Assembly: GCA_003507445.1 (NCBI GenBank) | Contig: DNVR01000019.1 | Span: 142,132 to 206,131 of the forward strand | Length of the DNA: 64,000 nucleotides | Reading direction: 5' to 3' | DNA from: Candidatus Moraniibacteriota bacterium | GTDB lineage: Bacteria; Patescibacteriota; Minisyncoccia; Moranbacterales; GWC2-37-73 | Part shown: in pieces, positions 2,868-62,073 of the stretch | Numbering within the stretch: position 1 is the stretch's first letter | Layout: every line of letters begins with the position of its first letter | Program-made: the position numbers and the translations under genes | The notes under the pieces: generated by a model | The model's database searches: none | Told to the model about the DNA's origin: nothing | What the model saw: the letters and a program-made list of their open reading frames with translations, nothing else

Positions 2868-4394
2868 ATGTCAAAATACATTCCTGTCATCGGTATGGAA
2901 GTTCACGTGGAGCTTAAAACTCACTCTAAGATGTTTTGCAATTCTAAAAATGGACTTGGACTTGAGAAAAAGCCAAATATTCATATTTGTCCTGTTTGCA
3001 CAGCTCAACCCGGAACACTTCCGGTGCCAAATCAGCAAGCTATTGAGTTTGTGCAGTTGGCCGGTCTTGCACTGAATTGCGAGCTGAATTTGAAGTCTAA
3101 ATTTGACCGTAAAAACTATTTTTACCCAGATCTTCCAAAGGGTTATCAAATCTCGCAATATGATCAACCACTTTGCGGGCTGGGGCATATGGATATAGAA
3201 GTTGAAAGTCAAAAGTCAAAAGTCATAAAGCGCATTGGGGTTACGCGAATTCATCTCGAGGAGGACACAGGAAAGCTTATTCACCCCGTAAAATCGTCTG
3301 CTGACGATCACGGGGCAGGTCCCGAGTGTGGTTATACTCTGGTGGACTATAACCGCGCTGGAGTGCCTTTAATGGAGCTTGTGACGGAACCTGACATTGA
3401 AAATGGGGAGCAAGCTCGGATATTTTGCACCCGACTTCAGCAAATTTGCCGTTACTTGGGCATTTCTGATGCTGATATGGAAAAAGGCAATATGCGCTGC
3501 GAAGTTAATCTCTCACTGCACAAGGAAAATGAGGAAAAACTTAGTGGAACAAAGGTTGAGGTTAAAAATATCAACTCTTTTAGGTTTGTGGAAAAAGCCA
3601 TTAATTATGAAATTGAGCGTCAAACTGAGGCTTTGGAAAATGGAGAAAAAATTGTTCAGGAAACTCGCGGCTGGGATAGCGTGAAAAATGTGACAGTGTC
3701 GCAAAGAAAAAAAGAATCCGCACACGATTATCGATATTTTCCAGAGCCGGATATTCCTCCAATGGAATTTACTGAGGAATATGTGGAAGGATTAAAAAGA
3801 AAACTTCCTGAGCTTCCTGCTGCGAAAGAAAAAAGATTTGCCGAGGAATATGGCTTGAAAATGGATGATATTTTGATTTTAACTGCCCAGGCTGATTTGG
3901 CTGAATATTTTGAAAATGTTATCAGTGAAATTAAGGAGAAAATTGCATCTCACGAAATCGTGGCAACTGAAGAAAAAGTTATTAAATTGGCTGTGAATTA
4001 TATCATTTCAGAAGTTCGCAAGCATTTGGCAGAGAATAATCACGACATTCGTGATCTCAAAATTTCAGCTGAAAATTATGCTGAGTTTATTGGAATTGTG
4101 GCGGATGGAAAAATAAACTCTTCTGCTGCACAAACCGTGCTCAAAGAAATGTATCACACTGGTGGCGATCCATCTCAAATCATTGAAGAAAAAAATCTTG
4201 GACAAATGGAGGATAGCAACGAATTGGAAATAATTGTGGATAAGGTTCTTTTGGGTAACCAAAAATCAATTGATGATTTTAAAGCTGGGAAAGATAATGC
4301 GCTTAAATTTTTGATGGGGCAAGTGATGAAGGAATCAGGCGGCAAAGCAAACCCACAAGTTGTGATGGAAATTCTTAAGAAAAAATTAATTTAA
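2868..4394 (+). CDS. gatB: Asp-tRNA(Asn)/Glu-tRNA(Gln) amidotransferase subunit B
   Basis: MSKYIPVIGMEVHVELKT... conserved GatB N-terminus and C-terminal YqeY-like tail. True start is ATG at 2868; the ORF-track start at 2781 overlaps the upstream gene. Carries a short in-frame repeat insert (ESQKSKV, 3207-3225). Confidence 0.9.
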   Translation: MSKYIPVIGMEVHVELKTHSKMFCNSKNGLGLEKKPNIHICPVCTAQPGTLPVPNQQAIEFVQLAGLALNCELNLKSKFDRKNYFYPDLPKGYQISQYDQPLCGLGHMDIEVESQKSKVIKRIGVTRIHLEEDTGKLIHPVKSSADDHGAGPECGYTLVDYNRAGVPLMELVTEPDIENGEQARIFCTRLQQICRYLGISDADMEKGNMRCEVNLSLHKENEEKLSGTKVEVKNINSFRFVEKAINYEIERQTEALENGEKIVQETRGWDSVKNVTVSQRKKESAHDYRYFPEPDIPPMEFTEEYVEGLKRKLPELPAAKEKRFAEEYGLKMDDILILTAQADLAEYFENVISEIKEKIASHEIVATEEKVIKLAVNYIISEVRKHLAENNHDIRDLKISAENYAEFIGIVADGKINSSAAQTVLKEMYHTGGDPSQIIEEKNLGQMEDSNELEIIVDKVLLGNQKSIDDFKAGKDNALKFLMGQVMKESGGKANPQVVMEILKKKLI

Positions 4395-4409
4395 TTAATT
4401 AAAAATAAT

Positions 4410-4931
4410 ATGGGAGAAGTTAGATTCATACAAGGATATAATCCTGAAGCAGGAAAAAAGGTTGGAACAAATAGAGATGACTTGGAGTTTCATAAGAATC
4501 AGGCTGCTATCACTGCTGCTTATGAGCAAAAAAAGAAAGAATTGAAAGAGAGAACTGAGGAAACGGCTAGATTAAAAAGGGAAATGGGTGGTTCTGATAT
4601 TTCAATTTCTCCAGAAACAGATGAGGTGCGAGAGGTTATGCATGAAAATTTCAAAGTGTCGTTAGCTTCAGTAGAGACGGATATAAAAGATGCAGTAAAA
4701 TGTGCTAGAGAATTAAAAGAGGATGTAAGCGATAAAGAAGATGCAAATTATGAACTCAAAATTCACTTGCAAGGAATAAGAATTAAGGATTTAGACGGAC
4801 GTCTTCAAAGTCTGCAGGAAATATACAAAAAAGATGAATTCCCAGAATTTCTGGGTAGACTCAAGGATGCGCTTATGATGCTTGATGTTTTAAAAACAAA
4901 TAGTAAATTTGAAAATAAAAAAAGAGCATAG
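4410..4931 (+). CDS. Hypothetical charged coiled-coil protein
   Basis: 173-aa ORF rich in Lys/Glu, no recognisable domain, followed by a terminator. Confidence 0.4.
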   Translation: MGEVRFIQGYNPEAGKKVGTNRDDLEFHKNQAAITAAYEQKKKELKERTEETARLKREMGGSDISISPETDEVREVMHENFKVSLASVETDIKDAVKCARELKEDVSDKEDANYELKIHLQGIRIKDLDGRLQSLQEIYKKDEFPEFLGRLKDALMMLDVLKTNSKFENKKRA

Positions 4932-4949
4932 AAATTTTACTTAAAGAAA

Positions 4950-4981
4950 AAGGCGAACTGTGAATCCAGTTCGCCTTTTTA
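4950..4981. terminator. Rho-independent terminator aaaaaggcgaactg...cagttcgccttttt
   Basis: Perfect stem ggcgaactg/cagttcgcc with A/T flanks, between convergent genes. Confidence 0.6.
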
Positions 4982-4992
4982 TTGAGAAGTTT

Positions 4993-5355
4993 TTATTCCA
5001 TTTGGAGAGTGAATGCCCCGGCGCATTCTCTTCCACTGTCTGTTAAGTACAAAAAAATTTTTGTAGTTTTTGTTATTTTTGTACTTAAATTTGCTGGAAG
5101 AGGGATGGTAAGTTTTAAGTCAGCTTTTGTTTTCAGGATTACTTCCGAAATTGGCAGTTTTGCATTTGATAATGTTGTGCCTATTCCTGATTCAAAAATA
5201 ACCGTTTTCCCATTAGTAAGACGCAAGCAAACACCTTGAATTAACGAAGCGATGTCGACCGCTGGATGCAAATCAATCTTTAGTGCAACCTCTTTTATGG
5301 TAAAGGTTATATTCTTTGCGCATTTGCCGATTGTTGCTCCTATTAAACTTGACAT
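4993..5355 (-). CDS. Hypothetical protein
   Basis: Strong SD (aaaggaggtg) 8 nt upstream of ATG at 5355. No family recognised. The ORF-track GTG start is too close to the SD. Confidence 0.45.
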   Translation of the reverse strand: MSSLIGATIGKCAKNITFTIKEVALKIDLHPAVDIASLIQGVCLRLTNGKTVIFESGIGTTLSNAKLPISEVILKTKADLKLTIPLPANLSTKITKTTKIFLYLTDSGRECAGAFTLQME

Positions 5356-5442
5356 TCTAATCACCTCCTTTCAGGTTGATTTTAAATTGGGAAAAAGCTA
5401 AATTGCCGACCTTTATTTATAGCAGATTTTAAGTATTTGTCA

Positions 5443-5512
5443 ACCCCACACTAACTTTTTCGCTTATTCTGAAATTAGTGCTTTGCACTACGAAAAAGTT
5501 AGTGCGGGGTCA
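5443..5512. repeat. Large near-perfect inverted repeat (19-bp arms ccccacactaactttttcg / cgaaaaagttagtgcgggg) with nested 6-bp IR in the loop
   Basis: Read directly from sequence. Sits in the divergent region between the 4993..5355(-) and 5730..6107(+) genes. Confidence 0.6.
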
Positions 5513-6153: not shown

Positions 6154-7083
6154 TTAAAGAAAATTTTTAACTTCTTTTTCAATATCTTCATACTTGTCTA
6201 GCCAGATAATGTCTTTGTTTCGTTTAAGCCAAGTCATTTGGCGCTTGGCAAAATGGATAATGTCAAAATATAAGAGCTTTTTCATCTCATCTAGTCCAAC
6301 CTTATCTTGTAGAAATCTTGATATCCAGCGATATTCCAAGCCAATGCGCTCCAACCATTCGTAAGTCACTCCATTTTTTTGGAGACTTTCCACTTCCTGA
6401 ATCATACCCTCATCAAAACGTTCATTAAGGCGTTTTTGTATTTTTGCATTTAATTCTTCTCGCTCAGTCTTTATCCCAATTTGCAAAAAATCATATTTTT
6501 TAACTGACAACTTACAACTAACAACTGACAACTTTGGAACTTTGCCTAGTGCTTTGCATATTTCAATTGCGCGAATGAGGCGCACGGGGTTTTTTGCATC
6601 AATATTTTTCGCGCGCTCAGGATCAAGTCTTCTCAATTCTTCAAAAAGCTCCTCAGTTGTTTTGCTACGTAACATGCTACGTAGCAGTTCGTCGGGTGCG
6701 ACTTCAGGTATAATTGTGTTATTTGTGATTGAATCAATCCAAAAATTTGTTCCACCACAAATGATTGGTATTTTTCCTCGTCCAATAATTTCTCCAATTA
6801 TTTTTTCAGCATCTTTTTTGAAGTGTGAAATATTATAATCTTCCATTGGCTCCGCCACATCAATCAGATGATGTAAAACATTTTCTGAAACAAATGCTCC
6901 ATGCTCCATACTCCATACTCCATCAACTTTTCCTGAACCAATATCAAGACCCTTATAAACTTGTCGGCTGTCAGCCGAAATTATTTCTCCATTAAATTTT
7001 TGAGCAAGTTTAATAGCAACTCCGGATTTTCCAGAAGCTGTGGGCCCCATAACAACAATGATTTTTGGTGCTTGTGTTTGCAT
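6154..7083 (-). CDS. miaA: tRNA dimethylallyltransferase
   Basis: IIVVMGPTASGKSGVAIKLAQKFNGEIISADSRQVYKGLDIGSGK is a P-loop MiaA signature. Contains in-frame repeat-derived inserts (VVSCKLSV...). Confidence 0.9.
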   Translation of the reverse strand: MQTQAPKIIVVMGPTASGKSGVAIKLAQKFNGEIISADSRQVYKGLDIGSGKVDGVWSMEHGAFVSENVLHHLIDVAEPMEDYNISHFKKDAEKIIGEIIGRGKIPIICGGTNFWIDSITNNTIIPEVAPDELLRSMLRSKTTEELFEELRRLDPERAKNIDAKNPVRLIRAIEICKALGKVPKLSVVSCKLSVKKYDFLQIGIKTEREELNAKIQKRLNERFDEGMIQEVESLQKNGVTYEWLERIGLEYRWISRFLQDKVGLDEMKKLLYFDIIHFAKRQMTWLKRNKDIIWLDKYEDIEKEVKNFL

Positions 7084-7084: not shown

Positions 7085-8521
7085 TTATTCTGCTCTACCT
7101 TCTAAGTTCCAAATATTGGCTTTAATAATCTTAACCTTCACAAATGTTCCGATTTGAATTTTTTTGTTAGAGACGATCTTTACATTTTTTTGCGTTCTGG
7201 TTTTCCCGAAACATATAAAACTCTTTCTTGACGCGTTGTCAGCAGCAGTTGATTTTACGCGTTCAATTAATACTTCAAAGGTTTTGCCGACATATTTTTT
7301 GTTATTTGCAAAGGCGGTTTTCTTGAGAATTTCATTGAGATAATTTTCTCGACGCGCCTTTTCTTTTTGAGAGACATTGTCTTTCATTTTCCATGCCACT
7401 GTTTCAGGTCGGGGAGAATATTGTCCAAAAAATACCATATCAAATTTCGATTTTTTCATTACCGCGGCCGACTCAAGAAATTGTTTTTTTGTTTCACCGG
7501 GAAAACCCACGATAATGTCGCTGGAAACACTAATCAACACCGATTTTCCACGGATTTTCACGAATGCTTTTCTTATTTTTTTGATTTGCTCTAAATAATG
7601 TTTTTGGGTATATTTTCGATTCATTCTTCGCAAAATTTCATCATCCCCGGCTTGCACTGGCAAATGAATCCATTCACAAACCTTTTTGCATCTTGCCACT
7701 GTTTCAATTAGTTCATCAGTCATATCCTTTGGATGCGAGGAAACAAAACTAATCCAGAATTTTCCCGGAATTGAATTTATTTTTTTTAACAATTTCGAAA
7801 AATTAATTTCTTTCTGAGTATTTTTTGTTGATAGTTGATAGTTGATAGTTGTGGGTGATTTATAGCTATTCACATTTTGTCCAAGTAGTGTGATGCTTTT
7901 GTATCCTTTTGCGACTAGGTCTTTAATCTCTTTGATTATTTCTTCGGCAGGACGAGAAACTTCGCGTCCTCGTGCATTTGGAACAACACAATAACTGCAG
8001 AAATTATTGCACCCAGTCATTATAGGGACATAAGCGGCATAATTGCTACTATATTTTGGATTAATAGAGAGATATGCGATGTTTTCTTTGTTGGTGATTT
8101 TATTTGGTGCCGCAATTTCCAATTTCCAATTTCCAATTTCCAAATAATTTTCAATGATCCAATTTTCAAATTCCCTAATATCTTTAACGGGGAAGAATAA
8201 ATCAACTTTTGATTTCATTCTTTTTTGAACATCGGCGCGGTTGGCGAGGCAACCAGTCATCACAATAACTTTTGACTTTGCATTTTCTTGTTTTGTTCCA
8301 TGCTCTATGTTCCATGTTTTATGCTTTTTGCGTAAGTTGTTAATCATACTGTACGCTCGATTTTCGGCAGTTTGTTTTATTCCACAAGTATTGAAAATTG
8401 TCAAATCAGCTTCTTTGATGTTATCAGTAACAGAAAAATTATGTTGCTCTAAAAAAGCAGCGATTCGCTCGCTGTCGCTAACATTCATCTGACAGCCAAA
8501 TGTTTTGATAAAATATTTCAT
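7085..8521 (-). CDS. miaB: tRNA-i6A37 methylthiotransferase (radical SAM, MiaB-like)
   Basis: MKYFIKTFGCQMNVSDSE MTTase N-terminus, CxxxCxxC radical-SAM region (GCNNFCSYC) and C-terminal TRAM domain. Adjacent to miaA. Carries several in-frame repeat inserts (EIGNWKLEI, TINYQLS, WNIEHGT). Confidence 0.85.
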   Translation of the reverse strand: MKYFIKTFGCQMNVSDSERIAAFLEQHNFSVTDNIKEADLTIFNTCGIKQTAENRAYSMINNLRKKHKTWNIEHGTKQENAKSKVIVMTGCLANRADVQKRMKSKVDLFFPVKDIREFENWIIENYLEIGNWKLEIAAPNKITNKENIAYLSINPKYSSNYAAYVPIMTGCNNFCSYCVVPNARGREVSRPAEEIIKEIKDLVAKGYKSITLLGQNVNSYKSPTTINYQLSTKNTQKEINFSKLLKKINSIPGKFWISFVSSHPKDMTDELIETVARCKKVCEWIHLPVQAGDDEILRRMNRKYTQKHYLEQIKKIRKAFVKIRGKSVLISVSSDIIVGFPGETKKQFLESAAVMKKSKFDMVFFGQYSPRPETVAWKMKDNVSQKEKARRENYLNEILKKTAFANNKKYVGKTFEVLIERVKSTAADNASRKSFICFGKTRTQKNVKIVSNKKIQIGTFVKVKIIKANIWNLEGRAE

Positions 8522-10675: not shown

Positions 10676-11126
10676 AAAAATAAAGTTAATGATTTATATA
10701 CTATTTTTAATTCCTAATTCCTAATTTCTAATATCTAATAAAATCTTAATTTCAAATGCCAAAATTTAGTCATTAAAAATTGGAAATTGTTTAGAAATTA
10801 GAAATTAGAAATTAGAAATTTTGATTCTAAATAAAAAAATACTCAAACAATACAGAAGAAACAATTAATGTTTCCGCATCGAGACTCTATCTGACGATAG
10901 GGTGGTTCCACTCGATTTCCCGTATTATTTGGGCACTTTGTGCGCTTATTCGCAAGCAGCTTAACCGGAAGCCTGTGCGCGGGTTGGTAAGCCGCAGCTC
11001 CATTTGATTGTATTTCAAGTATAGATAATTATTATAAAAAGTCAATATCTTTATTCTCCTGTTGCATTTTTTTGATAGTATGTTTGAATGATCGCAGTTG
11101 TTTAAAGTTATTTTGCAAGGGGCATT

Positions 11127-11453
11127 ATGAGTGAGTTAGGTAGTAATGCAATTGGAAGTGTTCTTTTGACTCTGATAAGAGGTGAAATGTCACCTGTGCC
11201 AATGAGCATTGTGACGGAGTGTGGAAAAAGCTTTTTGGGAATGGAATTTTATGAAGGTTCGGGAGAGATAAGGGAGGGAGCTGATGGAGATATTGCTGAA
11301 ATTATTTTTTTAGCGATGGGATTGGATGGTGATAGGGGATATTTTCGCTGGCTGAAGTTTGGAGAAACTGCTCAATTTCAATCGCCCGTGAAATATTACA
11401 AAATCCTCGATATTGCAAGAATGAATATTGGTTATAAACCCCCTGGTTTTTAA
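11127..11453 (+). CDS. Hypothetical protein
   Basis: 108-aa ORF followed by a clear terminator; no domain recognised. Confidence 0.35.
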   Translation: MSELGSNAIGSVLLTLIRGEMSPVPMSIVTECGKSFLGMEFYEGSGEIREGADGDIAEIIFLAMGLDGDRGYFRWLKFGETAQFQSPVKYYKILDIARMNIGYKPPGF

Positions 11454-11472
11454 GTTTTCCTTCTGATATATG

Positions 11473-11518
11473 CCACTTATTTTTCAATTAAAATCTGGAA
11501 AATAAGTGGTTTTTTTTA
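11473..11518. terminator. Rho-independent terminator (ccacttatttt...aaaataagtgg + T8)
   Basis: 11-bp stem followed by tttttttt. Confidence 0.6.
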
Positions 11519-11534
11519 TTAAAATATATTATAT

Positions 11535-11562
11535 ATTACAATATTTCAGTATATTGTAATAT
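11535..11562. promoter_or_regulatory. Perfect 10-bp-arm palindrome attacaatat-N6-atattgtaat (operator-like) upstream of Nudix gene
   Basis: Seen directly. Lies between the terminator and a TTGCAC/TAGAAA promoter-like sequence. Confidence 0.35.
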
Positions 11563-11634
11563 TATTTTAGATATGCTAATTCTGGCATAGTTAGTAAAAA
11601 ATGCTTGCACATTTTTATATGTGTGCTAGAAATT

Positions 11635-12201
11635 ATGTATCCTAATAAAAAGGAGGTGAGTTCATTGAAAAAACAAAAAAGTCTTCCAGAGGCTGGAGTA
11701 GTTTTTGTAAAAGACGAAAATGGACGGTATTTTCTGGCGGAAAAAGTTATAGGTAGAGATGAAAATGAGGAAAAAATTGGAGAAGGTAGGTTAAATGGAC
11801 TTGGTGGCGGACGTAATCTAAAAGAAACTCAAAAAGAAGCCATAATAAGGGAAGCGCTAGAGGAGTATGGTTTTATTTTGCATAAAAAAAGTATACATTT
11901 GAAAGCTATAGTTTTTTGTTGCAATGAAAAAAATGACGGAAGTGTTTTTATATGTAAGCTGTATGTCTTTGTGGCAACCAAGTGGAAAGGAATAATCTCG
12001 GCTTCTGATGAAATGATCAATGGAGAGTGGTTTCTGAAAGAAGATGTTCCATATGATCAAATGATTGTAACCGACAAGGATTGGTTGCCATTTGTCTTTG
12101 ACGGAGAATCGCTCTATGCATGGGTTTTCTTGCGAAATTCACAACGTGAAAAAACCAGGGAAACACAAATTAAGTTCGTGAAAAATCTTTCTTGTACTTG
12201 A
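11635..12201 (+). CDS. Nudix hydrolase
   Basis: GLGGGRNLKETQKEAIIREALEEYGF is a perfect Nudix box (Gx5Ex7REUxEExGU). Alternative TTG start at 11665 sits 7 nt after the AAGGAGGTG SD. Confidence 0.75.
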   Translation: MYPNKKEVSSLKKQKSLPEAGVVFVKDENGRYFLAEKVIGRDENEEKIGEGRLNGLGGGRNLKETQKEAIIREALEEYGFILHKKSIHLKAIVFCCNEKNDGSVFICKLYVFVATKWKGIISASDEMINGEWFLKEDVPYDQMIVTDKDWLPFVFDGESLYAWVFLRNSQREKTRETQIKFVKNLSCT

Positions 12202-12238
12202 ATAAATCCGCATGTTTAAAAAGCATAGCGGATTTTTT

Positions 12239-15796: not shown

Positions 15797-16334
15797 AAAT
15801 GAATTTGTGATTTAAAAACAGATCTAAATTTCTAATATCTAATTTCCAATATCTAATTAAATTCTAATTTCAAAGTTTTAAACATTAGACATTTGAAATT
15901 TATTGGGAATTAGAAATTAGGAATTAGAAATTAAAAAACCTCACTATAAATAGTGGGCTATAAAATACAGATATTAAAATGTTGAAATTTAATCTTGTTC
16001 ATATGTTTATGTTATCTTCATCTCCCAGGGACAAAGCCATTGGGTTTTGCAAGATATTTTAATAAATCTATGTTAGCATATTTTTTGAAAAAAGAAAACA
16101 TAGTAGTTTAGGACTTACGCTTTTTCTCAACAATTTCTTATTTGGCACGCTTTTGGATGAATACTCAATATCCAAAAGCTCAAAGAGTCGCTGTCGCCGA
16201 CTATTGTCCAAAAAAGAAATGTTTCGAAATGCGTAACTTTTGAAACAGTTCAAAACCTGAAAGTGGATAACTTTTCTTGTAAATATGGTATAATTTAACT
16301 ATTAAGATGGATATTTAAATAGTGGGGTTGTTTA

Positions 16335-17413: not shown

Positions 17414-18109
17414 ATGGAAACTTCGACTTTTATTTTAGAAAAAGATTTTGCTAATCAGGGATTCACTCATATTATTGGAACTGATGAGGTTGGTCGTGGG
17501 CCGCTTTGTGGTCCTGTTTTGGCGTGCGCTGCAATGTTTAAGGATATTAATTTCGAAATTCCCGCTGATAAACAAAAGCAATTCGATCTTATTCGGGATT
17601 CTAAAAAAGTTTCAGAAAAACAGCGCGAAGAGATTTTTGATTTTATTAATGAGCATTTTTATATTGGCATCGGACTTTGCGACCATATAACAATTGACAG
17701 GATTAATATTTTGGAAGCTAGTTTTTTGTCAATGAAAAAAGCGGTTTCGGATTTGATCCGAAACAAGTCAAAAGTTGAAAGTCAAAAGTTGAAAGTTGAG
17801 GAAAGGATTATAATTCTCGTGGATGGGAATAAGGTTATTCCTAATCTCTCTATGGAGCAATATGCTGTGGTAGGAGGGGATAAATTGGTAAAATCCATTT
17901 CGGCAGCTTCAATTGTGGCAAAAGTGACGCGCGATCGGATGATGCAAGAAATGCACGTTAAATATCCACAATATGGCTTGGATAAGCATAAAGGTTATGG
18001 CACAAAGATGCATATGGACGCTCTGATTAAATATGGACCCTGTGAGATTCATCGAAAATCCTTTGCACCAGTCAAAAAAGCCTTAAACAGGGCAACTCTT
18101 GCCAGATAA
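17414..18109 (+). CDS. rnhB: Ribonuclease HII
   Basis: HIIGTDEVGRGPLCGPVLACAAM matches the RNase HII active-site N-terminus. Carries an in-frame repeat insert (KSKVESQKLKVEE). Confidence 0.88.
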   Translation: METSTFILEKDFANQGFTHIIGTDEVGRGPLCGPVLACAAMFKDINFEIPADKQKQFDLIRDSKKVSEKQREEIFDFINEHFYIGIGLCDHITIDRINILEASFLSMKKAVSDLIRNKSKVESQKLKVEERIIILVDGNKVIPNLSMEQYAVVGGDKLVKSISAASIVAKVTRDRMMQEMHVKYPQYGLDKHKGYGTKMHMDALIKYGPCEIHRKSFAPVKKALNRATLAR

Positions 18110-18428: not shown

Positions 18429-18519
18429 AAATAAACAATACGAATTAGTATGCGAATTAAATCCGAATTAAAAACGAATTCGGATAAGATTCGGATATAA
18501 TTTGGATTAATATTCGTAT

Positions 18520-19026: not shown

Positions 19027-19162
19027 TAAAATTTTTTAAATATCCAATTTCTAATTACCAATTTCTAATTAATTTCAAATTTCTCAATGTCTAAATTTTG
19101 ACATTAGGGTTTAAATTTTTTATTAGGAATTAGAAATTAGAAATTAGAAATTCTGAATTTCT

Positions 19163-45125: not shown

Positions 45126-47747
45126 TTGAAGCGTAACTGAAATCAGTCCAGCTAAAGTTGCAATGTATGCGAGTTTGTTTTGTTCGTCGACTGTCAATGA
45201 AAGCGCATCTTTGAAGGCTTCATTGTGGTATTGCACAAGGATGTTCCCGTCTTTGCTATATGAAACTAGGCGCGAGTTTTGTGTGTCTAGTACATAGAGG
45301 TTTTGCAAGTCCGGAGTTGTGTATATTTTATCAAAGTTAATAGGTGTGGTGGATGCTTCAAGTGTGAAATCGACAACTTTTCCTTTGAAGAATTTTAAAA
45401 CTTTATTATCGGAAATCGCATAAATGTTGTCGTCGATTGTTATTTCTGAAACATTTGCAAGAGATGTTGAATCTTTGAGCCAACTTGTTTTTTCGCCAAA
45501 TCCACCGTCTGCGCGTGGGAAGCGATAAATTTGATTGTTTTTTTGATCAAGCACATATAAATATGTTAGATATGTTCCAATTGGACTTCCTGATGAAATG
45601 TTGGATAAATCGATGTTGTTGCTTGCAAACTTTTCTGAAATTGGACTGAAGGAAAGAATTTTGTTGCTGTCCGTGAAGATTAAAACAAGGGACAAGTCTT
45701 TCATATATGTTGCGGAAATAGCAGCTCCGGAGTCAGCAGGAATCGGAAATTCTTTCGGCTCTTTGTTTTGCAAAACAATAACGCTGTTTTTTGTAACCAC
45801 TGTTGGATTGTTGTTTGCGATCAAAGCGGTAACGATATTTGAGTTTGATAAAATTGCTTGAATTTGTGTGTTGAAATCAATATTTTTGTCATTTGCCAAT
45901 GCTCCTATTTGGGTCAAAGGCGCATCTTGAAGTTCAACAATTGTTGGAGCTTTTGGTCTGTTCAAGAAACGCACAATGAAAAGAGGTGCGATAAAAATAA
46001 GGGCTAGTGCAAAAAGAATAAACAGTTTTTGTTTTCCTGAAAAATGTGAAAATAATTTTCCAATTTTTGAAAAATGCGGAGTTATGATGGTTGTTAATTG
46101 ACTTGGCTTTGCAATACCAGACCTTCTTTTTGCTATTGCTCTAATTTTGCTTAGTCCAATTTTTGTGTGCGCAATTAATTTTTTTGATAGTGGTAGTATT
46201 TTTTTAATATTTTCCAAAGCCAACATCTTAAGTTTCGTTGTTTTGGATGTTGTTTCAACATTTTCAAATTGTATTTCTGGCTGGATGAGGATTTCTTCTT
46301 CTAATGTCTCGGTTTCCTTTGCGGTTTTGTTTTTCAGATCAATAACAGCGTTTCCTTGCTGCTCTAGTCTTGCTAAACGAAGTTTTTCTTTGAAGCTTAA
46401 TTGTGAATCTGCAGTTGGTTGGCTCTCTGGTTCTTCTGCGCCGATATCTGCAACTTTAATTTTTGCTGCTGTTTTTTTCTTGGCTATTTCAGCTTTTGCG
46501 AGAATATTTTCTTGTGCAAGATTTTCTTGTTGACGCTTGTTTTCTTCCTCAAGATGAAGTTTGGCAAGTTGCTGCTCCTCGGCGATTTGTTGTTCGCGCT
46601 GAATTTCTTGCAAAACCCTTTCTTCTTCAAGACGTTTTGCCTCTTCGGCTGCAAGAAGCTGTTGTTTTTCTTTTTCAATTCTGCGAAGCTCTCTTCTTTT
46701 TGCTAATTGTTTTTTGTATAAAGAAAAACGTTTTCGAATTTCATTTTTGGTTAAATATGATCCTTGGGAGATTTTTTCTTTGATCATATCCCAATACAAA
46801 TTCATTTGGGGATTGGTGTTCTCATTGTTTTCATTGACCTCGCCCTGAACGTATATGTGCCCGGTTTTTTCATCGGTATATTCTTGTTCAGCATCTGCCG
46901 GCAGTATTGTCATTTCTAATTCATTTTCTTGTGCCAAGGTTTCAGTGTCTTTGGCGCTGGCAAAAGATTGTTGGCTGAAAGCATTGACTGCCTTGGGAGA
47001 TTTTTTGCGAGGCAGTGCCTTGGTTGCTGCAGCAGGAACCACTTCAGTCATTTCGACAACCACCGAAGCAATCATTTCTATTTGGTTTGAAAGTGCGGTT
47101 TTCAAAAATTGCACAAATTTGTCTCCTTCAAATCGTTGGAAATTCTTTTTGATTTCAGCAATTGGCAAAATATGAAAAATATCTGCCGAGGTTATCAGCA
47201 TTCGATCATTTTTTTCAAGGCGTCCGCTGGAAACATTAACAAAAGTCTTGAGTGGGTGTGGCTCAAGGGAATCTGAGGCGAGATCCTCACTTATCTCGGA
47301 AAGACTTTGGTTTCTATATAAAAAGATTTTAGCATCGCCTGAAACACTGAAATGCGCATTGTTTTTTTCTAACACACAAATTGCGGCGTTTATTTTGCCT
47401 AGCCATTCAACGTTCCCGTGTTTGGCTAATTCAGAAAGTGCAATGTTCACTTTGTGTAGGGCACTGTCCAAGCTTTCCGTGACTGGTCTTTTTGGATTTA
47501 TATAATATTCCTTTTTTAAAACAGAGGTTAAAAAGTTCACAACATATGCAGATTCATCGGAGAATTCTTTGACTTCAAAAAAGCCAACAAGCGAGCCGAG
47601 CGGTTGCTGGTAGATGTTTTCTGGTGCGTATTCAAATAATTCCACGTATGGTTTTAGGGAGGAATTGTTGACAACCAAAATTGGGGAAATTGTTTTTTCC
47701 AGTTCTTTTATCACATCTTTGTTTTTATCGGAGTTTCTTGGGGACAT
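45123..47747 (-). CDS. Hypothetical single-pass membrane protein (cytoplasmic domain + Glu/Gln coiled coil + TM + extracytoplasmic beta-repeat domain)
   Basis: TM LFILFALALIFIAPLFIV near aa 560; EEERVLQEIQREQQIAEEQQ coiled coil; C-terminal repeats resembling beta-propeller blades. Confidence 0.5.
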   Translation of the reverse strand: MSPRNSDKNKDVIKELEKTISPILVVNNSSLKPYVELFEYAPENIYQQPLGSLVGFFEVKEFSDESAYVVNFLTSVLKKEYYINPKRPVTESLDSALHKVNIALSELAKHGNVEWLGKINAAICVLEKNNAHFSVSGDAKIFLYRNQSLSEISEDLASDSLEPHPLKTFVNVSSGRLEKNDRMLITSADIFHILPIAEIKKNFQRFEGDKFVQFLKTALSNQIEMIASVVVEMTEVVPAAATKALPRKKSPKAVNAFSQQSFASAKDTETLAQENELEMTILPADAEQEYTDEKTGHIYVQGEVNENNENTNPQMNLYWDMIKEKISQGSYLTKNEIRKRFSLYKKQLAKRRELRRIEKEKQQLLAAEEAKRLEEERVLQEIQREQQIAEEQQLAKLHLEEENKRQQENLAQENILAKAEIAKKKTAAKIKVADIGAEEPESQPTADSQLSFKEKLRLARLEQQGNAVIDLKNKTAKETETLEEEILIQPEIQFENVETTSKTTKLKMLALENIKKILPLSKKLIAHTKIGLSKIRAIAKRRSGIAKPSQLTTIITPHFSKIGKLFSHFSGKQKLFILFALALIFIAPLFIVRFLNRPKAPTIVELQDAPLTQIGALANDKNIDFNTQIQAILSNSNIVTALIANNNPTVVTKNSVIVLQNKEPKEFPIPADSGAAISATYMKDLSLVLIFTDSNKILSFSPISEKFASNNIDLSNISSGSPIGTYLTYLYVLDQKNNQIYRFPRADGGFGEKTSWLKDSTSLANVSEITIDDNIYAISDNKVLKFFKGKVVDFTLEASTTPINFDKIYTTPDLQNLYVLDTQNSRLVSYSKDGNILVQYHNEAFKDALSLTVDEQNKLAYIATLAGLISVTLQ

Positions 47748-50107: not shown

Positions 50108-50165
50108 TTTGTCATCCTGAACTTGTTTCAGGATCTAGATTCCGGATCAAGTCCGGAATGACACA
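50108..50165. mobile_element. MITE-like element (compact copy): tttgtcatcctgaa...ggatcaagtcc ggaatgaca
   Basis: Shares the left terminus with 25585 and the hairpin/right terminus with 33207/55370 elements. Confidence 0.5.
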
Positions 50166-50171
50166 GCTATT

Positions 50172-54299: not shown

Positions 54300-55080
54300 A
54301 ATTGTCAAAGGGCGCTTTCGTTGAAGCTTTATCCGCCTCTGGCGATTTCAATCGCTTTAGGAGACAAATTCTTCCTTTAGTCTTTTCATTGTATCTTAGC
54401 CAAATTTGAGCGTCAACTAGACAAAAAGCCTGTTTTTTGGCGTAATAAAGCATAAAACATATAGCGTACAACATGCAACAAACAACAAACAACATTGTAA
54501 CCCCAGTTAAATATTGTGGAGTACCACAATTTAACAGGATAAATATATAACAAAAAATAATATAAATTGATGTAAAATTATTGGTTTATAATTTATAACA
54601 AAGTTTAAATAAAATATTTTTTTATAAAAATATGAGAGATTGAAAAATACAAAAAGTTAAAAAATAATTTTTTCAAAAAAAAGTCTGCGTAGAAAATATT
54701 TTTTAGAAATTTTATTTCAAGATAGATGTATAAATATAATGTGAGATAAGATAGTGGATATGGTGTTAAAATGTTTTTTAAAATTTAAAAGTTAAAATTT
54801 AAAATTTTGTGATGCTGTGGATAACTTTTTTGCATTGCTTTTTAAAAAATATCCACTATAATTAAGGTAATGGAAAAAAGATTTTTTGAAAATATTTTTT
54901 CTGTGAAATAAAAACATTAAAAGCAAAAATTAAAAATTAAAAATATTTGTTTTCTGAAAAAGTATTTAGAACTTTAGACTTTGGCCCGCACCTTTTCTGA
55001 TGATTGCAATTGAAATCAAAAGAGATGGTGCGGGACAAACGAGTCTTGCTAGATATTCGTATAAGAGCAAATTTACGAAA
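54300..55080. promoter_or_regulatory. AT-rich ORF-free region with clustered DnaA-box matches (candidate oriC or DnaA-regulated region)
   Basis: TGTGGATAA at 54816-54824 (9/9 to reverse complement of TTATCCACA), TAGTGGATA at 54752-54760, TATCCACTA at 54850-54858, weaker TTATCCGCC at 54328. Long A/T tracts 54540-54720. Confidence 0.4.
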
Positions 55081-55094
55081 GGAGGTGTTTTACC

Positions 55095-55265
55095 ATGGCA
55101 GTTAAAAAAGCAAAAAAGAAAGTTGCAAAAAAAGTAGTTAAAAAAGTTGCAAAGAAAGCTGTAAAAAAAGCAGTTAAAACTGTAAAAAAAGCAGTTAAAA
55201 AAGCAGCTCCAAAAAAAGCTGTAAAGAAAGTTGCAAAAAGAAAAGTAGCAAAGAAACGAAAATAG
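55095..55265 (+). CDS. Lysine/alanine-rich histone-like small basic protein (Hc1/H1-like KKAVKK repeats), 56 aa
   Basis: Strong SD aaaggaggtg 7 nt upstream of ATG; terminator downstream. Not in ORF track (<60 aa). The antisense ORF 55073..55303 is an artefact. Confidence 0.6.
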   Translation: MAVKKAKKKVAKKVVKKVAKKAVKKAVKTVKKAVKKAAPKKAVKKVAKRKVAKKRK

Positions 55266-55358: not shown

Positions 55359-55369
55359 TTGAGGAAAAG

Positions 55370-55488
55370 TTGTCATTCCGGACTTGATCCGGAATTCAGG
55401 ATTAGCACGTTAAACTTTAAATAATATTTTTCTCAATTTTAAATCCGTAGTTCAAATCCTGGATTCCCGCCTACGCGGGAATGATAAT
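55370..55488. mobile_element. MITE-like element (ttgtcattcc-GGACTTGATCC-ggaattcagg ... cctggattcc-CGCCTACGCG-ggaatgataa)
   Basis: Same architecture as 33207-33328; internal hairpin stems differ by compensatory changes. Confidence 0.6.
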
Positions 55489-55495
55489 GAATTTT

Positions 55496-56386
55496 TTATT
55501 TAATTTCTATTTTACACACTCTCCATTTACCAGCTAAGTCTTTTTTGAATTCTGGCTTGGTTTTTGGGAAAATGCTTTTGATAAGTTTTGCGAGTGGTTG
55601 TTTTTGCTCGGGACTGATCTCTAAAAAACATGTGACATGTGACAATTGACAATTGGCAAGAAAATCCTGGAGTTGTTCTAATAATTTGCGGTAATGTTGC
55701 AGTCCGGCTTCTGGACTGTAAAGTGCAGATTTTGGTTCGAATTTTTTGACATCAATTGGAGCTGAAGAATAAATTTCTTTTGAGAGATAGGGAAGATTAG
55801 CCACGATTACTATCGTGGAATTTCCAATTTCCAATTTCCAATTTCCAATAAATGGTTCAAGTAAACTTCCGTGGAGGAATTTGATTTTTTTATCAACGCC
55901 ATTCGCGGCAGCATTTTTCTTGGCAATGGTTAATGCTTCCTTGCTGATGTCGATTCCAAAGTATTCAACTTTGTCATTCCCGCGGAGGCGGGAATCCAGG
56001 TTTGCGATGGAGATAATAATATTTCCAGATCCTGTCCCAATGTCAACAATTCCTAAATTGGAAATTGGAAATTGGAAATTGGAAATTTCGTTGAGCACCA
56101 GCTCAACGAGTAGTTCCGTTTCTGGTCTTGGGACGAGAGTGTGTTTATTTACGATAAAATCCAATCCATAAAATTCCTTATGACCAAGGATGTAGGCGAT
56201 AGGCTCTCCTTTGAGGCGACGATTAATTTGAAATTTGAAATTTGAAATTTGAAATTTTGTTAATTTATATTCTGGATATGTTAAAACAAACTCCCTTGTT
56301 TTACCAAGAGAGTTTGCTATTAGGATTTCTAAATCCAAATAGTCTAGTTTATTTGTATATTTTTGGATAATTTCTGAAATTGTCAT
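55496..56386 (-). CDS. prmC: Release factor glutamine N5-methyltransferase PrmC/HemK
   Basis: VDIGTGSGNIIISIA SAM motif I and VANLPY (NPPY-like) motif IV. Adjacent to prfA. Carries several in-frame inserts derived from heptamer repeats and a MITE half-site (LDSRLRGNDK). Confidence 0.8.
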   Translation of the reverse strand: MTISEIIQKYTNKLDYLDLEILIANSLGKTREFVLTYPEYKLTKFQISNFKFQINRRLKGEPIAYILGHKEFYGLDFIVNKHTLVPRPETELLVELVLNEISNFQFPISNLGIVDIGTGSGNIIISIANLDSRLRGNDKVEYFGIDISKEALTIAKKNAAANGVDKKIKFLHGSLLEPFIGNWKLEIGNSTIVIVANLPYLSKEIYSSAPIDVKKFEPKSALYSPEAGLQHYRKLLEQLQDFLANCQLSHVTCFLEISPEQKQPLAKLIKSIFPKTKPEFKKDLAGKWRVCKIEIK

Positions 56387-56418
56387 TTTGAAATTGAGAT
56401 TTTATTAGACATTAGAAA

Positions 56419-57492
56419 TTAGGAATTAGACATTTTTAACCTCGTGTCTTCTTCTCGGATAGCTTCAATAATAGGGTCGATGTTTCCATCCAAAATTCCT
56501 TCCATATTGCTCCAAGATTGTTTGATGCGATGGTCAGTAATGCGATCTTGTGGATAATTGTAAGTTCTGATTTTTTCAGAGCGGTCGCCGGTTCCAACTT
56601 GGCTTTTGCGAGCATCTCCCAATTCTTTGGCCTTTCTTTCTTCTTCGGCTTGCAAAAGACGAGAGCGCAAAACTTTCATAGCCTTGTCTTTGTTTTTGAG
56701 TTGTGATTTTTCATCTTGGCAGGAAACAACCACGCCAGTTGGAATATGCGTAATACGCACGGCACTTTTGGTTGTGTTTACTGATTGTCCTCCAGGACCG
56801 GATGAACAAAAAGTGTCGATTCGCAAATCGTTTTCACTGATAACCAAATCAACCTCTTCAGCTTCAGCGAGAACAGCCACGGTTGCAGTTGAAGTATGGA
56901 TTCGTCCTTGTTTCTCTGTTTCAGGAATTCTTTGCACTCGATGCACTCCAGATTCGAATTTCATTTTTTGATAAACTGGATTTGTTGGGGTTCCGCTAAT
57001 TTCGAAAACAACTTCCTTGAAGCCTCCTAATTCTGTGCGATTTGAATTTAACACATCCAGCTTCCAATTGTTTTTCTCGGCAAATTTGGAATACATACGA
57101 AAAAGGCTGGCAGCAAAAAGAGCAGATTCATCTCCGCCTGCACCACCACGAATTTCCACAATAATGTTTTTGTCATCATTTGGATCTTTTGGCAAAAGCA
57201 TTATTTCAAGTTCTTTTTCAATCTCAGCTTTTCTTTTTGCTAATTCAATGTTTTCAGTTGTTGCCATTTCTTTCATTTCTGCGTCGTCGTCGGTGTTCAT
57301 AATTTCAGCATTGCCTTTCATTTCTTGCTCAATTTTTTCATATTCATTGATTTTCTGCATCAATCCTTGAAGTTCACTTTGGCGTTTGCCAAGCTGTGCC
57401 ATTTTTTTTGCATCATTAAAAATCTCCGGAGAACTTAGCTCGGCCGTGATTTCGTTATATTCCTTTTTAATTGCATCTAATTGTGATTTCAT
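56419..57492 (-). CDS. prfA: Peptide chain release factor 1
   Basis: [23 protein letters not shown] motif and the PxT-type RF1 decoding region. Confidence 0.92.
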
Positions 57493-59175: not shown

Positions 59176-59307
59176 TATTTCATAATTACTAATTACCAAT
59201 TACTAATTTCTAACAAAAACAAAAATAAAAAATGTCTAATTGTTTGAAATTTGACATTGAAAATTTTATTAGATATTAGAAATTAGATATTAGAAATTTT
59301 TAAACCT

Positions 59308-59883: not shown

Positions 59884-59961
59884 ATTGAAGTATAATTTTT
59901 TGTACAATAAAGCAAGCATTTTGTTGTGAGTCGTAAGTTGTTAGTTGTAAGTCAATTTATG

Positions 59962-60763: not shown

Positions 60764-61444
60764 TTGAATCAAATGTTAAACTATATCTTACCACCAATAA
60801 TAATTGTTATCAGCATTTCTATTTTGATAATGTTTCTTTTTCGTAAAGCTGCGCAGATTCCAGCGGGAGAATTTATTGCAGATGAACAAAGAAATGAAAA
60901 TGAAAAAAAGAGTTTCAAGTTGTTTCAAGCAGTTGGACAATTGGGATTGAAAATATTGGAAAGATTGATGCATCATTCAAAATTGTTGTCACTTAAGTTT
61001 CACAATGTTAGCAATGCTTGGTTCCAAACAATTCGTGAAAAAAGACAACGAAGTGTACAATTGCAAAAAGAAGAGCAGGAGAAAAAAGTTTTGCTTAATA
61101 CTGAATTCCAACAGACTGATGAAGTGAAGGACAGTGAGGCTGTGAATGTTCAATATAAAAGTAATGTTGTGGAAGAAGTGAGAACATCCAGACCAATGGT
61201 TAAAGATGCCGTAACAATGCCTAGGCAAAAAATGGTAAAAGAAAAAAATCAATTGGAAGAAGCATTGATCAAACGAATTGCTGTAAACCCTCGTGACATA
61301 GAAGCATACGAAAGATTGGGGGATTATTATTTGGAAGGAGACAATTTTCAAGATTCACTGGAATGTTTCAAGCAAGTCCTGCGTTTGAGCCCTGCTCATC
61401 ACAAAGCACGTCTTAGAATCAGGAGACTTGAAAGAATGAAATAG
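60764..61444 (+). CDS. Hypothetical membrane-anchored protein with C-terminal TPR-like helical repeat
   Basis: N-terminal TM (ILPPIIIVISISILIMFLF); C-terminal RLGDYYLEGDNFQDSLECFKQVLRLSPAHHKA resembles a TPR. Confidence 0.4.
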   Translation: MNQMLNYILPPIIIVISISILIMFLFRKAAQIPAGEFIADEQRNENEKKSFKLFQAVGQLGLKILERLMHHSKLLSLKFHNVSNAWFQTIREKRQRSVQLQKEEQEKKVLLNTEFQQTDEVKDSEAVNVQYKSNVVEEVRTSRPMVKDAVTMPRQKMVKEKNQLEEALIKRIAVNPRDIEAYERLGDYYLEGDNFQDSLECFKQVLRLSPAHHKARLRIRRLERMK

Positions 61445-61467
61445 ATAGTGTAAGATTGGAAGATATT

Positions 61468-61539
61468 GCCACCCTAGCTCAACGGTAGAGCTACTGTTTT
61501 GTAAACAGTAGGTTATCGGTTCAAATCCGGTGGGTGGCT
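61468..61539 (+). tRNA. tRNA-Thr (anticodon TGT)
   Basis: Acceptor gccaccc/gggtggc, D-arm agctcaacggtagagc, anticodon loop ttTGTaa, T-loop ggttcaaatcc. Confidence 0.8.
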
Positions 61540-61577
61540 CAAGATGGATAGAGGAATATAAGAGTAGTTTTTAAAAT

Positions 61578-61660
61578 GGGCGGATGGCAGAGCGGTCAAA
61601 TGCTCCGCACTGTAAATGCGGCGCCTTCGGGCTACGGGGGTTCGAATCCCTCTCCTCCCA
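61578..61660 (+). tRNA. tRNA-Tyr (anticodon GTA), long variable arm
   Basis: Anticodon stem ccgca/tgcgg with loop ctGTAaa, long variable arm gcgccttcgggc, T-loop ttcgaat. One acceptor-stem mismatch. Confidence 0.75.
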
Positions 61661-61698
61661 CAGTATAAAACAAAAGAGAAAAATTGCAGAAGTAAAAC

Positions 61699-61970
61699 GC
61701 CGTTGTAGCTCAGTTGGTAGAGCACATCCTTGGTAAACTCCCTGCCCACCATTTAGGAAACTGAATGGCGAATCCCGAATAACGGTTAAAGGCCTTGCAT
61801 TGGGTTCAGACCGTGGCGTGAATAATTTTTTTCGCCCGAACGACTGACAAGGGGAGCTAAGTCCGATGGATATGCTTAATATACAGTCTAATCCTCTACA
61901 ATAGATGCAATATAAAAAATAGAGGTGCAAATGAGGGATGAGGTCACCGGTCCGATTCCGGTCAACGGCT
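61699..61970 (+). tRNA. tRNA-Thr (anticodon GGT) interrupted by ~199-nt intervening sequence (candidate group I intron, 61735-61933)
   Basis: 5' half gccgttgtagctcagttggtagagcacatccttGGT is canonical through the anticodon. The complementary 3' half (ag)ggatg-aggtc-accggtccgattccggt-caacggc-t lies about 200 nt downstream. The acceptor halves are perfectly complementary. Confidence 0.55.
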
Positions 61971-62073
61971 CAGGTTTGAATAAATTAATTATCATATAAC
62001 ATAAAACATATAGCATATAACATGGGATGCAGGGTTGCTCCATGATCAATGCTCCATGTTCCATGAAAATATT

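Follow-up and report, generated by a model that had tools for sequence, protein, structure and literature searches.

Some 35 years after tandem repeats of heptanucleotides first became known, no cause for them has, to our knowledge, been accepted. The classic case is reportedly that of the short tandemly repeated repetitive (STRR) sequences of heterocystous cyanobacteria, an account attributed to Mazel and colleagues in 1990. The small dispersed repeats (SDR) of Nostoc, which Elhai and colleagues are said to have described in 2008, are reportedly mobile-looking elements of < 30 nt that are inserted into heptamer arrays. Rickettsia palindromic elements (RPE) are palindromic, ~ 100-150 bp in length and share a conserved family sequence. 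In this work, a 64-kb stretch of DNA from Candidatus Moraniibacteriota bacterium (GenBank assembly GCA_003507445.1, contig DNVR01000019.1, positions 142,132 to 206,131; hereafter 'the window') was analyzed. The host belongs to Candidatus Moranbacteria within the Patescibacteria or candidate phyla radiation (CPR), and its DNA carries, both in intergenic spacers and in frame within conserved genes, short arrays of approximately four tandem 7-nt units with a remainder of 1-6 nt, for a total of 29-34 bp and a mode of 31.

Heptamer repeats are reported to be over-represented in many prokaryotes, with slippage of the polymerase, in relation to how long a stretch of DNA its active site holds, as the suggested cause (Mrazek 2007, as relayed in PMC4692102). 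As far as that account goes, no CPR genomes were included, and a four-unit focal size, the overwriting of coding sequence and the turnover of units are apparently not described. Direct repeats of TAACTGA are found in Beggiatoaceae, Cyanobacteria, and Bacteroidetes (MacGregor 2015, PMC4679880), and in Beggiatoa their copy numbers fall monotonically (68, 40, 19, 2, and 1 for two to six copies; PMC4679880). The 23S intervening sequence (IVS) of Coxiella has 3+1 heptamers at an RNase III cleavage site (PMC4990558). The original prediction, a reading of the window from its letters, knew of no description of the phenomenon, but the repeats do fall within a recognized class of prokaryotic repeats of which the cyanobacterial STRRs are the classic members. 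In the literature on the CPR combined with heptamer or tandem repeats, no description of such arrays was found.

The abundance of the arrays was assessed using Tandem Repeats Finder (TRF). The window contained 42 period-7 arrays of ≥ 2.8 copies, as against a mean of 0.4 in 20 dinucleotide-preserving shuffles of the same DNA, and all periods other than 7 gave one to three TRF rows each. Perfect period-7 arrays of ≥ 3 copies numbered 14 where none were expected, and no perfect array of ≥ 3 copies was present in the window at periods 5, 6, or 8-15. The prediction that dozens of 7-nt arrays occur throughout the window was thus borne out by a strong period-7 excess over shuffled controls, the kind of count that had been proposed genome-wide. 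More than 20 different units were found, in both orientations and with no single unit dominant, and the same unit was scattered over unlinked loci (AATTTCC at four, ATTAGAA at six, AAATTCG at two, and AAAAGTC at three). Some arrays had a period of 14 repeated 2.2 times, which again gives ~ 31 nt. A word and its reverse complement were both said to occur, and indeed the peptides NFQFPISNFQ and IGNWKLEIGN represent the two strands of one unit.

Nearly all of the coordinates and words first listed for the arrays were also right (positions 3207, 6510, 6898, 7826, 8115, 8290, 10795, 15905, 17768, 18195, 19125, 25707, 27077, 27494, 27583, 27741, 28728, 41769, 41828, 42327, 44963, 55826, 56057, 56228, 56409, 59178, 59268, and 62040). 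The errors were at 48550 and 58102, where TTACAAA words lie at an irregular spacing of 8-10 nt and form no heptamer array. The gene assignments on which the prediction relied (gatB, miaA, miaB, rnhB, two GT4 genes, and prmC) were confirmed by Pfam, as were thrS, dnaE, nusB, rnc, mreB, holB, prfA, rpsB, and tsf. An Rfam scan of the window returned three tRNAs only and no known RNA family at the arrays. An assembly or chimera artefact, which had been raised as a concern, was ruled out: the window DNA was 100% identical across independent assemblies of several samples (MEGAHIT, scaffold-based, and NCBI), a further assembly matched it without gaps at 99.84% identity, some arrays were conserved in a species of ~ 88% nucleotide identity, and both the reads and the k-mer length far exceed the arrays in size.

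The size of the arrays was sharply defined. Perfect arrays in the window, and likewise in the related CPR loci (1.3 Mb), piled up at 29-33 nt with none longer, and those in metagenome loci reached 34 nt. Apart from AATTTCC, the family used as the query, only two longer perfect arrays were seen, of 73 and 84 nt, both on one contig of 60% GC. When whole copies were counted in the indel-free period-7 arrays of 2.2 Mb (TRF), 136 arrays had three, 280 had four, 32 had five, five had six, and 10 had seven or more. The mode was the same inside long ORFs (19, 43, and 3 arrays of three, four, and five copies) and outside ORFs (14, 22, and 2), indicating that selection for multiples of three, or for frame, does not by itself set the four-unit size; the earlier suggestion that such selection shapes the arrays therefore fails as an account of their size. 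Units of the ATTAGAA type, which have stop codons on both strands, still gave arrays of 30-31 nt. Where units within an array differed, isolated internal substitutions dominated, with 198 cases of the form ABAA or AABA as against eight of AABB. This indicates that arrays are born perfect and decay afterwards. Directional error propagation, in which one-pass reiterative copying would leave steps of the form U1U1U2U2, was rejected on the same counts.

Arrays of this type were not confined to the window. Among related CPR sequences (80 loci, 1.3 Mb), TRF found 223 arrays of period 7 as against 83 of period 8, 46 of period 9, and 41 of period 6, and 60 of the 80 loci had at least one period-7 array. 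Units with an AAATT core dominated these loci, and many unrelated units (CGTGGAG, CTCGATG, ACGGACA, and others) each formed four-unit arrays in related CPR and metagenome loci. The gene for leucyl-tRNA synthetase (LeuRS) of a Kaiserbacteria genome at 55% GC was found to bear an AATTTCC array, which indicates that the trait spans the Parcubacteria whatever the base composition; note that this was the only high-GC metagenome locus that was assigned taxonomically.

For comparison with the cyanobacterial repeats, 200 kb of Nostoc punctiforme pNPUN01 served as a control and contained 21 period-7 arrays, with copy numbers clustered at 4.3-4.9 and with inverted pairs flanking genes. Neither the size mode nor the pairing is thus peculiar to the CPR, and on this likeness, which extends to tandem 7-nt units, several dispersed unit families, arrays of ~ 4.5 units, and inverted pairs, the CPR arrays were classed as STRR-type heptanucleotide repeats. 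The two differ in host, in base composition (STRR units are G/C-rich, whereas AT-rich units with an AAATT core prevail here), and in location. A cyanobacterial origin of the window, to which the repeats might point, was rejected, since the host is Moranbacteria. STRRs are mainly intergenic. The CPR arrays are also denser in spacers, by 5-7-fold overall (266 arrays per Mb of DNA outside ORFs as against 53 within them; 9.1% of intergenic and 1.2% of coding bases), yet in the window about half of them by count lie inside ORFs, in frame in housekeeping genes, at recurrent hot spots and often as length-neutral replacements. What is new over the known STRRs is the phylum, the AT-rich families, the in-frame replacement at hot spots, the turnover of units, and a natural frameshift polymorphism. 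As a separate observation on the control (L213-L216), inverted array pairs in pNPUN01 flank three genes for S23p-like 'four helix bundle' proteins, a link between the STRRs of cyanobacteria, IVS-like cassettes, and the heptamers found at the RNase III site in Coxiella. A similar link was rejected for the window, where no four-helix-bundle (S23p) gene adjoins the arrays.

The coding arrays (Table 1) were compared with orthologs, above all those of the closest species, L006, which has ~ 88% nucleotide identity to the window. Net length differences at arrays were +9, +6, -6, and +30 nt, and three window arrays were kept in L006 with an equal number of units. Several other arrays were missing from L006, and Bacteroides MiaB and Thermotoga HemK lack the coding arrays. 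The ortholog alignment proposed at the outset thus bore out the claim that the repeat peptides are lineage-specific and in frame. In miaB, two variable loops carry arrays that depend on the CPR lineage (CGTGGAG × 4.4, AAATCCG × 4.4, CAAACTA × 4.1, and AATTTCC × 4.4), and the Bacteroides protein has short native loops at both sites. At the loop 2 site, L006 has an array with a 9-nt period, and heptamer arrays of other kinds are found in other CPR, while NRAAATT × 4 arrays occupy the linker site in many Moranbacteria. The decayed array at 8294-8323 is an exact, clean insertion of 30 nt (10 amino acids) that is specific to the window. The idea that the window and L006 share an exceptionally conserved miaB array was dropped, as the region is among the most conserved and not unique.

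Many of the other events were replacements. In Kaiserbacteria-type LeuRS genes without an array, the sequence reads GAA TTT CCA ATy (EFPI). In array-bearing genes, AATTTCC × 4.6 extends from the EFPI point, the native frame is regained at an in-phase ATT, and the total length is equal, so that a local seed has been expanded over 18-21 nt of native sequence; the native segment replaced is a hairpin. As an aside, the LeuRS proteins of these Kaiserbacteria-type Parcubacteria (L096 and L206-L208) have a NUDIX domain after the editing domain, an arrangement conserved in > 100 homologs.

A similar replacement was found in PrmC, which has five array hot spots. At site 1, the array peptide KFQISNFKFQI aligns without gaps to a helix of Thermotoga HemK and is itself predicted to be helical, with a predicted local distance difference test (pLDDT) score of ~ 95. 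The segment has a constant length of 21-22 amino acids in 108 homologs, 20 of which have an array-type peptide (≥ 3 of 5 i/i+7 identities) and the remainder a native, non-periodic helix. The other PrmC arrays lie in loops predicted with lower confidence (pLDDT ~ 70) and add 4-7 residues relative to HemK. The original description of the repeat peptides as insertions therefore holds for the clean miaB case, and many others, such as PrmC site 1 and LeuRS, are replacements. The analogy drawn with RPEs is likewise valid only for location, in that lineage-specific peptides occur in frame within conserved proteins and are tolerated at surface regions; the arrays described here are tandem direct repeats of ~ 31 bp with diverse units, and they often replace sequence rather than add to it.

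The units at PrmC site 1 also turn over. Five species have four-unit arrays of equal phase and length with differing units: AAATTTC in the window and L209, AAATCTC in L211, AAAATTG in L210, and AAAATTT in L212. Overall identity between the prmC genes of the window and L209 is 67.7%, and it falls to 53% at third codon positions, yet a 47-nt identical run spans the site 1 array.

One interpretation of these data is that slipped-strand DNA synthesis or repair, out of register by 7 nt, produces the arrays. The process would start from a local seed such as AATTTCCAAT, in which a heptamer is followed by its own first 2-5 nt, and the seed unit would be copied over the next ~ 21 nt or, sometimes, be inserted instead. 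An existing array could be re-written from one of its own mutated units, which would give orthologous sites with perfect arrays of related but different units at equal phase and length. Once formed, an array would mostly decay through point substitution, and arrays above four units would still be able to slip by ± 7 nt. On this proposal the arrays would be largely non-adaptive and would survive where constraint is low: spacers would be filled from the stop codon up to ~ 7-10 nt short of the following start, and in protein loops or tolerant helices only net length changes divisible by three would survive. Slipped-register synthesis is considered the most likely generating mechanism. The fuller proposal, of STRR-type mini-arrays that arise by slipped-register (7-nt) synthesis or repair at local seeds, have a focal size of approximately four units, insert, overwrite and re-write, and are tolerated under low constraint, is given a little better than an even chance. 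The enrichment, size mode, phylogenetic spread, hot spots, use of seeds, length-neutral replacement, unit turnover, and ± 7-nt polymorphism were observed; we infer the molecular mechanism, as well as the reasons for a period of 7 and for the four-unit focal size.

The AATTTCC family bears on a different explanation. A scan of metagenomes with the query AATTTCC × 3 returned 123 arrays, and the loci (> 120) had GC contents of 28-64%. On contigs of < 45% GC (n = 78), no array had five or more full units. The commonest length was 30, 68 arrays in total consisted of four full units then AA, and the phase was nearly fixed, with 27 of 30 arrays of length 30 beginning AATTTCC. In viral contigs there were 11 AATTTCC hits, of lengths 24-39, none with the four-units-plus-AA form. 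It could be that such ~ 30-bp sequences, for example (AATTTCC)4AA, are a limited set of tiny mobile or copy-paste cassettes that have spread, inside single genomes of the Parcubacteria and from one to another, by ectopic gene conversion or an integrase-like activity, in analogy with the SDRs of Nostoc or with in-frame RPEs. The fixed-phase 30-mer at so many loci of such varied GC, the Kaiserbacteria LeuRS gene included, would fit this, as would the four AATTTCC and six ATTAGAA loci in the window, the clean miaB insertion, the 47-nt identical run between prmC genes that are only 68% identical, and the dominance of AAATT-core units in related CPR loci; conversion from dispersed donor arrays would also naturally keep length. 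However, a flank profile of the 68 four-unit arrays showed no conserved positions beyond the array, and neither terminal inverted repeats, target-site duplications nor conserved ends were found there. Dozens of unrelated units each build four-unit arrays, the LeuRS array grows from a native seed within the gene, and no associated enzyme was identified. A copy-paste origin is considered unlikely. An exact 30-nt cassette for every unit was dropped altogether, because that length holds for AATTTCC only: the modal length of the other units was 31, with a general range of 29-34, and the invariant is thus four units plus a few nucleotides and not an exact 30-mer.

Note, however, that several observations weigh against slipped-register synthesis at local seeds. 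Simple stepwise slippage predicts a monotonic fall in copy number, as in the TAACTGA repeats of Beggiatoa, and not a mode at four with a valley at three and a near-cap at five, and ordinary slippage shifts length by 7 nt, yet many events keep length. Neither the near-fixed phase of AATTTCC nor the presence of the same AT-rich units in genomes with a GC content of 55-64% is obviously expected from random local seeds, and both are a better fit for a templated or copy-paste process. The window's own arrays showed no copy-number variation across 10-16 assembled contigs, across protein clusters, or against the strain at 99.84% identity. In addition, the placement of arrays before start codons and their pairing in hairpins could reflect function and not neutrality. 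A bolder idea, to which a low probability is attached, is that the Parcubacteria (CPR) possess a length-measuring templated overwrite that takes a local 7-nt seed, lays ~ three further copies over the adjacent ~ 21 nt of either coding or non-coding DNA, usually preserves length, and re-writes existing arrays. Such a process, if real, would represent a mutational mechanism in its own right, which a replication or repair enzyme specific to the lineage might underlie; it would keep remodeling short stretches of essential proteins, and it might explain the heptamer excess in cyanobacteria and other bacteria.

Slippage in a 7-nt register was evident in the prmC gene of a well-sampled, related Moranbacteria species (L212, L228, L229, and L230), in which an ATACAAG array exists as five-, four-, and three-unit alleles. 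The five-unit allele (77 contigs) encodes an intact PrmC of 298 amino acids. The four-unit allele (at least 22 contigs) is frameshifted, which splits prmC into ORFs of 110 and 185 amino acids, and the three-unit allele (four contigs) is also frameshifted. The split gene comprises a separate N-domain ORF (110 or 126 amino acids) and a methyltransferase ORF (185 amino acids), and only one other site varies among the alleles in 897 nt. These alleles establish that 7-nt register slippage happens in nature, at least above four units, and together with the turnover of arrays between species they support the earlier view that the process is active. Alleles that differ by ± 7 nt and split prmC in a natural population also mean that such tracts can act as frameshift switches, and the intact and frameshifted alleles in identical surroundings would suit classical contingency loci, that is, hypermutable on/off switches. 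As a general account this is very improbable: the window arrays keep the reading frame and do not vary in any of the contigs sampled, the number of units is equal in a species at 88% identity, the arrays sit in core housekeeping genes and not in surface or restriction genes, and four-unit arrays look stable.

The spacer arrays had a recurrent layout. A stop codon is followed after 1-7 nt by a left array, the middle of the spacer holds a small hairpin and a TTGACA word, and a reverse-complement array then ends 7-10 nt before an ATG. This was seen between nusB and rnc and between rpsB and tsf, and upstream of mreB, rpmF, rpmG, and the ORF at 41867. The distance from array to ATG was 7 nt at rpmF and rpmG, 9 nt at tsf, and 10 nt at rnc, mreB, and the ORF at 41867, and at none of these six genes was there an AGGAGG in between, a motif that the organism uses elsewhere, for example at 55075. 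The inverted array pairs fold far better than shuffles (z = -2.9 to -6.7). These findings raise the question of whether the spacer arrays are cis-elements and the coding copies their by-products, a reading that is compatible with slipped-register synthesis and is doubtful as it stands. The inverted pairs might conceivably form double-stranded RNA stems for RNase III processing, transcript stability or termination, a role to which only a small probability is assigned, and the A/U-rich sense arrays before start codons are tentatively, and with no greater confidence, put forward as putative Shine-Dalgarno-independent translation leaders. In favor of such roles, TAACTGA repeats in Beggiatoa similarly lie a few nt upstream of starts that have no ribosome-binding site (PMC4679880), the Coxiella heptamers are at a site of RNase III cleavage (PMC4990558), and Nostoc arrays flank genes as inverted pairs. 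The TAACTGA repeats also resemble the arrays here in having occasional copies within ORFs in the stop-free orientation (PMC4679880); they differ in having one dominant unit, with in-ORF copies that are peripheral and mostly in hypothetical proteins, whereas many units in both orientations are used here. On the other hand, L006 has no array upstream of rnc, and its rpmF spacer has a TTGGAAA × 4 array at another place instead of the GACTTTT array, so that the arrays there are dispensable. Very diverse units are used in both orientations, arrays adjoin stop codons too, as expected from the filling of all unconstrained spacer, and function cannot account for the coding copies.

The array that had been placed in a 5' extension of rpmG is real, and the extension itself probably is not: the rpmG start is most likely at ~ 62074, directly after the array at 62039-62066, which ends 7 nt upstream. 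The ORF of 92 amino acids with a GTG start at 62297-62575 is spurious, since tRNA-Trp (62305-62376) overlaps with it.

The CPR arrays combine a high density and a sharp four-unit size with many copies inside well-understood enzymes, and as orthologs provide the state before and after each event, the birth of an array can be reconstructed. Segments of ~ 10 residues in the essential proteins MiaB, PrmC, LeuRS, and GatB have repeatedly been replaced by peptides that are set by the repeat structure of the DNA and not by function, and such repeat-dictated protein novelty, or CPR-specific 'insertions', was not found documented in the literature searched. In practical terms, the arrays cause spurious ORF extensions, can confuse alignment and annotation, and are possible strain markers.

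Table 1. Heptanucleotide arrays in the window, in order of position (positions are those of the window; L006 is the closest species).
Positions	Repeat	Setting	Comparison or basis
3205-3230	AAAGTCA × 3.6	In frame, gatB (ESQKSKV)	L006: unrelated sequence, 9 nt shorter
6502-6533	AACTGAC/ACAACTT × 4.6	In frame, miaA	In L006 with point differences
6894-6923	CTCCATR × 4	In frame, miaA (WSMEHG)	L006: same four units
7827-7851	GTTGATA × 3.6, fourth unit mutated	In frame, miaB loop 2 (TINYQLS)	
8113-8143	CAATTTC × 4.4, 31 nt, perfect	In frame, miaB linker (LEIGNWKLEI)	Identical in L006
8294-8323	Decayed TGTTCCA TGCTCTA TGTTCCA TGTTTTA TG	miaB (KHKTWNIEHG)	
10708-10740	TAATTCC/CTAATAT	Left arm of inverted pair upstream of thrS	TRF; hairpin with 10791-10820, z = -4.5
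10791-10820	TTAGAAA × 4.3, 30 nt, perfect	Right arm of pair upstream of thrS	TRF, folding
15822-15857	ATCTAAT/TTTCTAA × 5	Left arm, 25 nt upstream of dnaE start	Hairpin z = -6.7
15908-15937	AATTAGA × 4.3	Right arm at dnaE	TRF, folding
17765-17799	AAGTCAA/AAGTTGA, period 14 × 2.3 = period 7 × 4.1	In frame, rnhB (KVESQKLKVE)	Absent in L006
18192-18224	GACTTTT × 4.7, 33 nt, perfect	Ends 7 nt upstream of rpmF start	
19034-19083	Decayed TTTCTAA-type arrays	Left arm, from 7 nt after nusB stop	Hairpin z = -3.6
19122-19152	ATTAGAA × 4.4	Right arm, ends 10 nt upstream of rnc start	Absent in L006
19848-19874	CATATAG × 3.9	From 1 nt after rnc stop	
25710-25732	TTAGAAA × 3.3	Ends 10 nt upstream of mreB start	
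27076-27103	AACTTAC × 4.0	In frame, first GT4 gene (NNLQLTTY)	
27494-27524	AATTTCC × 4.4, perfect	In frame, first GT4 gene (NFQFPISNFQ)	
27572-27600	TCGAAAT × 4.1, perfect	In frame, first GT4 gene (SKFEIRNSKF)	
27740-27770	AAATTCG × 4.4, perfect	In frame, first GT4 gene	
28729-28760	CATGGAG × 4.6	In frame, second GT4 gene (MEHGAWSIEH)	
28762-28798	ACCAAAT × 5.3, 80% match	In frame, second GT4 gene	
29351-29400	Decayed ATTTGNA arrays	Upstream of holB	
41767-41798	AACATGT × 4.6	Left arm of inverted pair	Hairpin z = -3.8
41826-41856	ATGTTAT/ATGCTAT, period 14 × 2.2 = 31 nt	Ends 10 nt upstream of ORF at 41867	
42316-42341	CTAAAGA × 3.7	From 11 nt after a stop codon	
44964-45000	AGGTTTT × 5.3	From 1 nt after stop of VirD4-like gene	
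54468-54494	ACAACAA × 3.9	Intergenic	
54777-54807	TTTAAAA × 4.4	Intergenic	
54906-54944	AAATTAA × 5.6, 73% match	Intergenic	
55640-55659	TGACAAT × 2.9 + ACATGTG × 2.4	In frame, prmC site 5 (LANCQLSHVT)	
55819-55849	AATTTCC × 4.4, perfect	In frame, prmC site 4 (IGNWKLEIGN), low-pLDDT loop	
56055-56087	AAATTGG × 4.7, perfect	In frame, prmC site 2 (EISNFQFPISN), low-pLDDT loop	
56225-56257	AATTTGA × 4.7, perfect	In frame, prmC site 1 (KFQISNFKFQI), replaces native helix, equal length	
56404-56434	ATTAGAA × 4.4	Overlaps prfA stop, 17 nt upstream of prmC start	
59183-59213	TAATTAC × 4.4	Left arm, from 7 nt after rpsB stop	Hairpin z = -2.9
59267-59298	ATTAGAT/ATTAGAA, period 14 × 2.2	Right arm, ends 9 nt upstream of tsf start	
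59923-59952	GTTGTAA × 4.3, 78% match	Downstream of tsf	
61993-62023	CATATAA × 4.4	Intergenic, after tRNA genes	
62039-62066	TCCATGA × 4.0	Ends 7 nt upstream of probable rpmG start	

Two families of small palindromes of ~ 30 nt, CTGGATTCCCGC-N4-GCGGGAATGA and GTCATTCCGGA-N5-TCCGGAAT, were also found, at 55455-55490 (intergenic), 55966-56000 (inside prmC, minus strand), 50128-50170, and 55364-55405. The prmC copy is read in frame as NLDSRLRGNDK, a peptide common to several Moranbacteria PrmC proteins and located in a low-pLDDT loop. Related palindromes occur in frame in the MiaB of L010 and within the heptamer arrays of L210 (site 4) and L211 (site 2), and the interruption of heptamer arrays by small palindromes in these two relatives is a likeness to the SDRs, which are fixed-sequence elements, unlike the heptamer arrays. 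The small palindromes are closer to RPE or repetitive extragenic palindromic (REP) elements than the heptamer arrays are.

Between thrS and dnaE, 1,193 nt of the window (11046-12238) are missing from the syntenic L006 region. The segment, perhaps an insertion or an islet that varies between strains, holds two ORFs, at 11127-11453 (no Pfam hit) and 11605-12201. Directly upstream of nusB, at 18437-18520, period-11 repeats (AATTCGGATAA-like, ~ 4 copies, twice) with inverted symmetry form a class separate from the heptamers. A small, very Lys/Ala-rich ORF on the forward strand (55087-55265; MAVKKAKKKVAKKVVKKV...), which contains repeats with periods of 12, 21, and 36 nt and is preceded by a strong AGGAGG, looks like a histone-H1-like or basic nucleoid protein. 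Finally, a machinery for DNA uptake or secretion may be represented by a VirD4/TraG-like coupling-protein homolog (42476-44962; weak Pfam hits), by the adjoining 874-amino-acid ORF (45123-47747), for which Pfam gave no hit, and by a type IV pilin-like protein (62960-63259) that has a methylation motif at its N-terminus.

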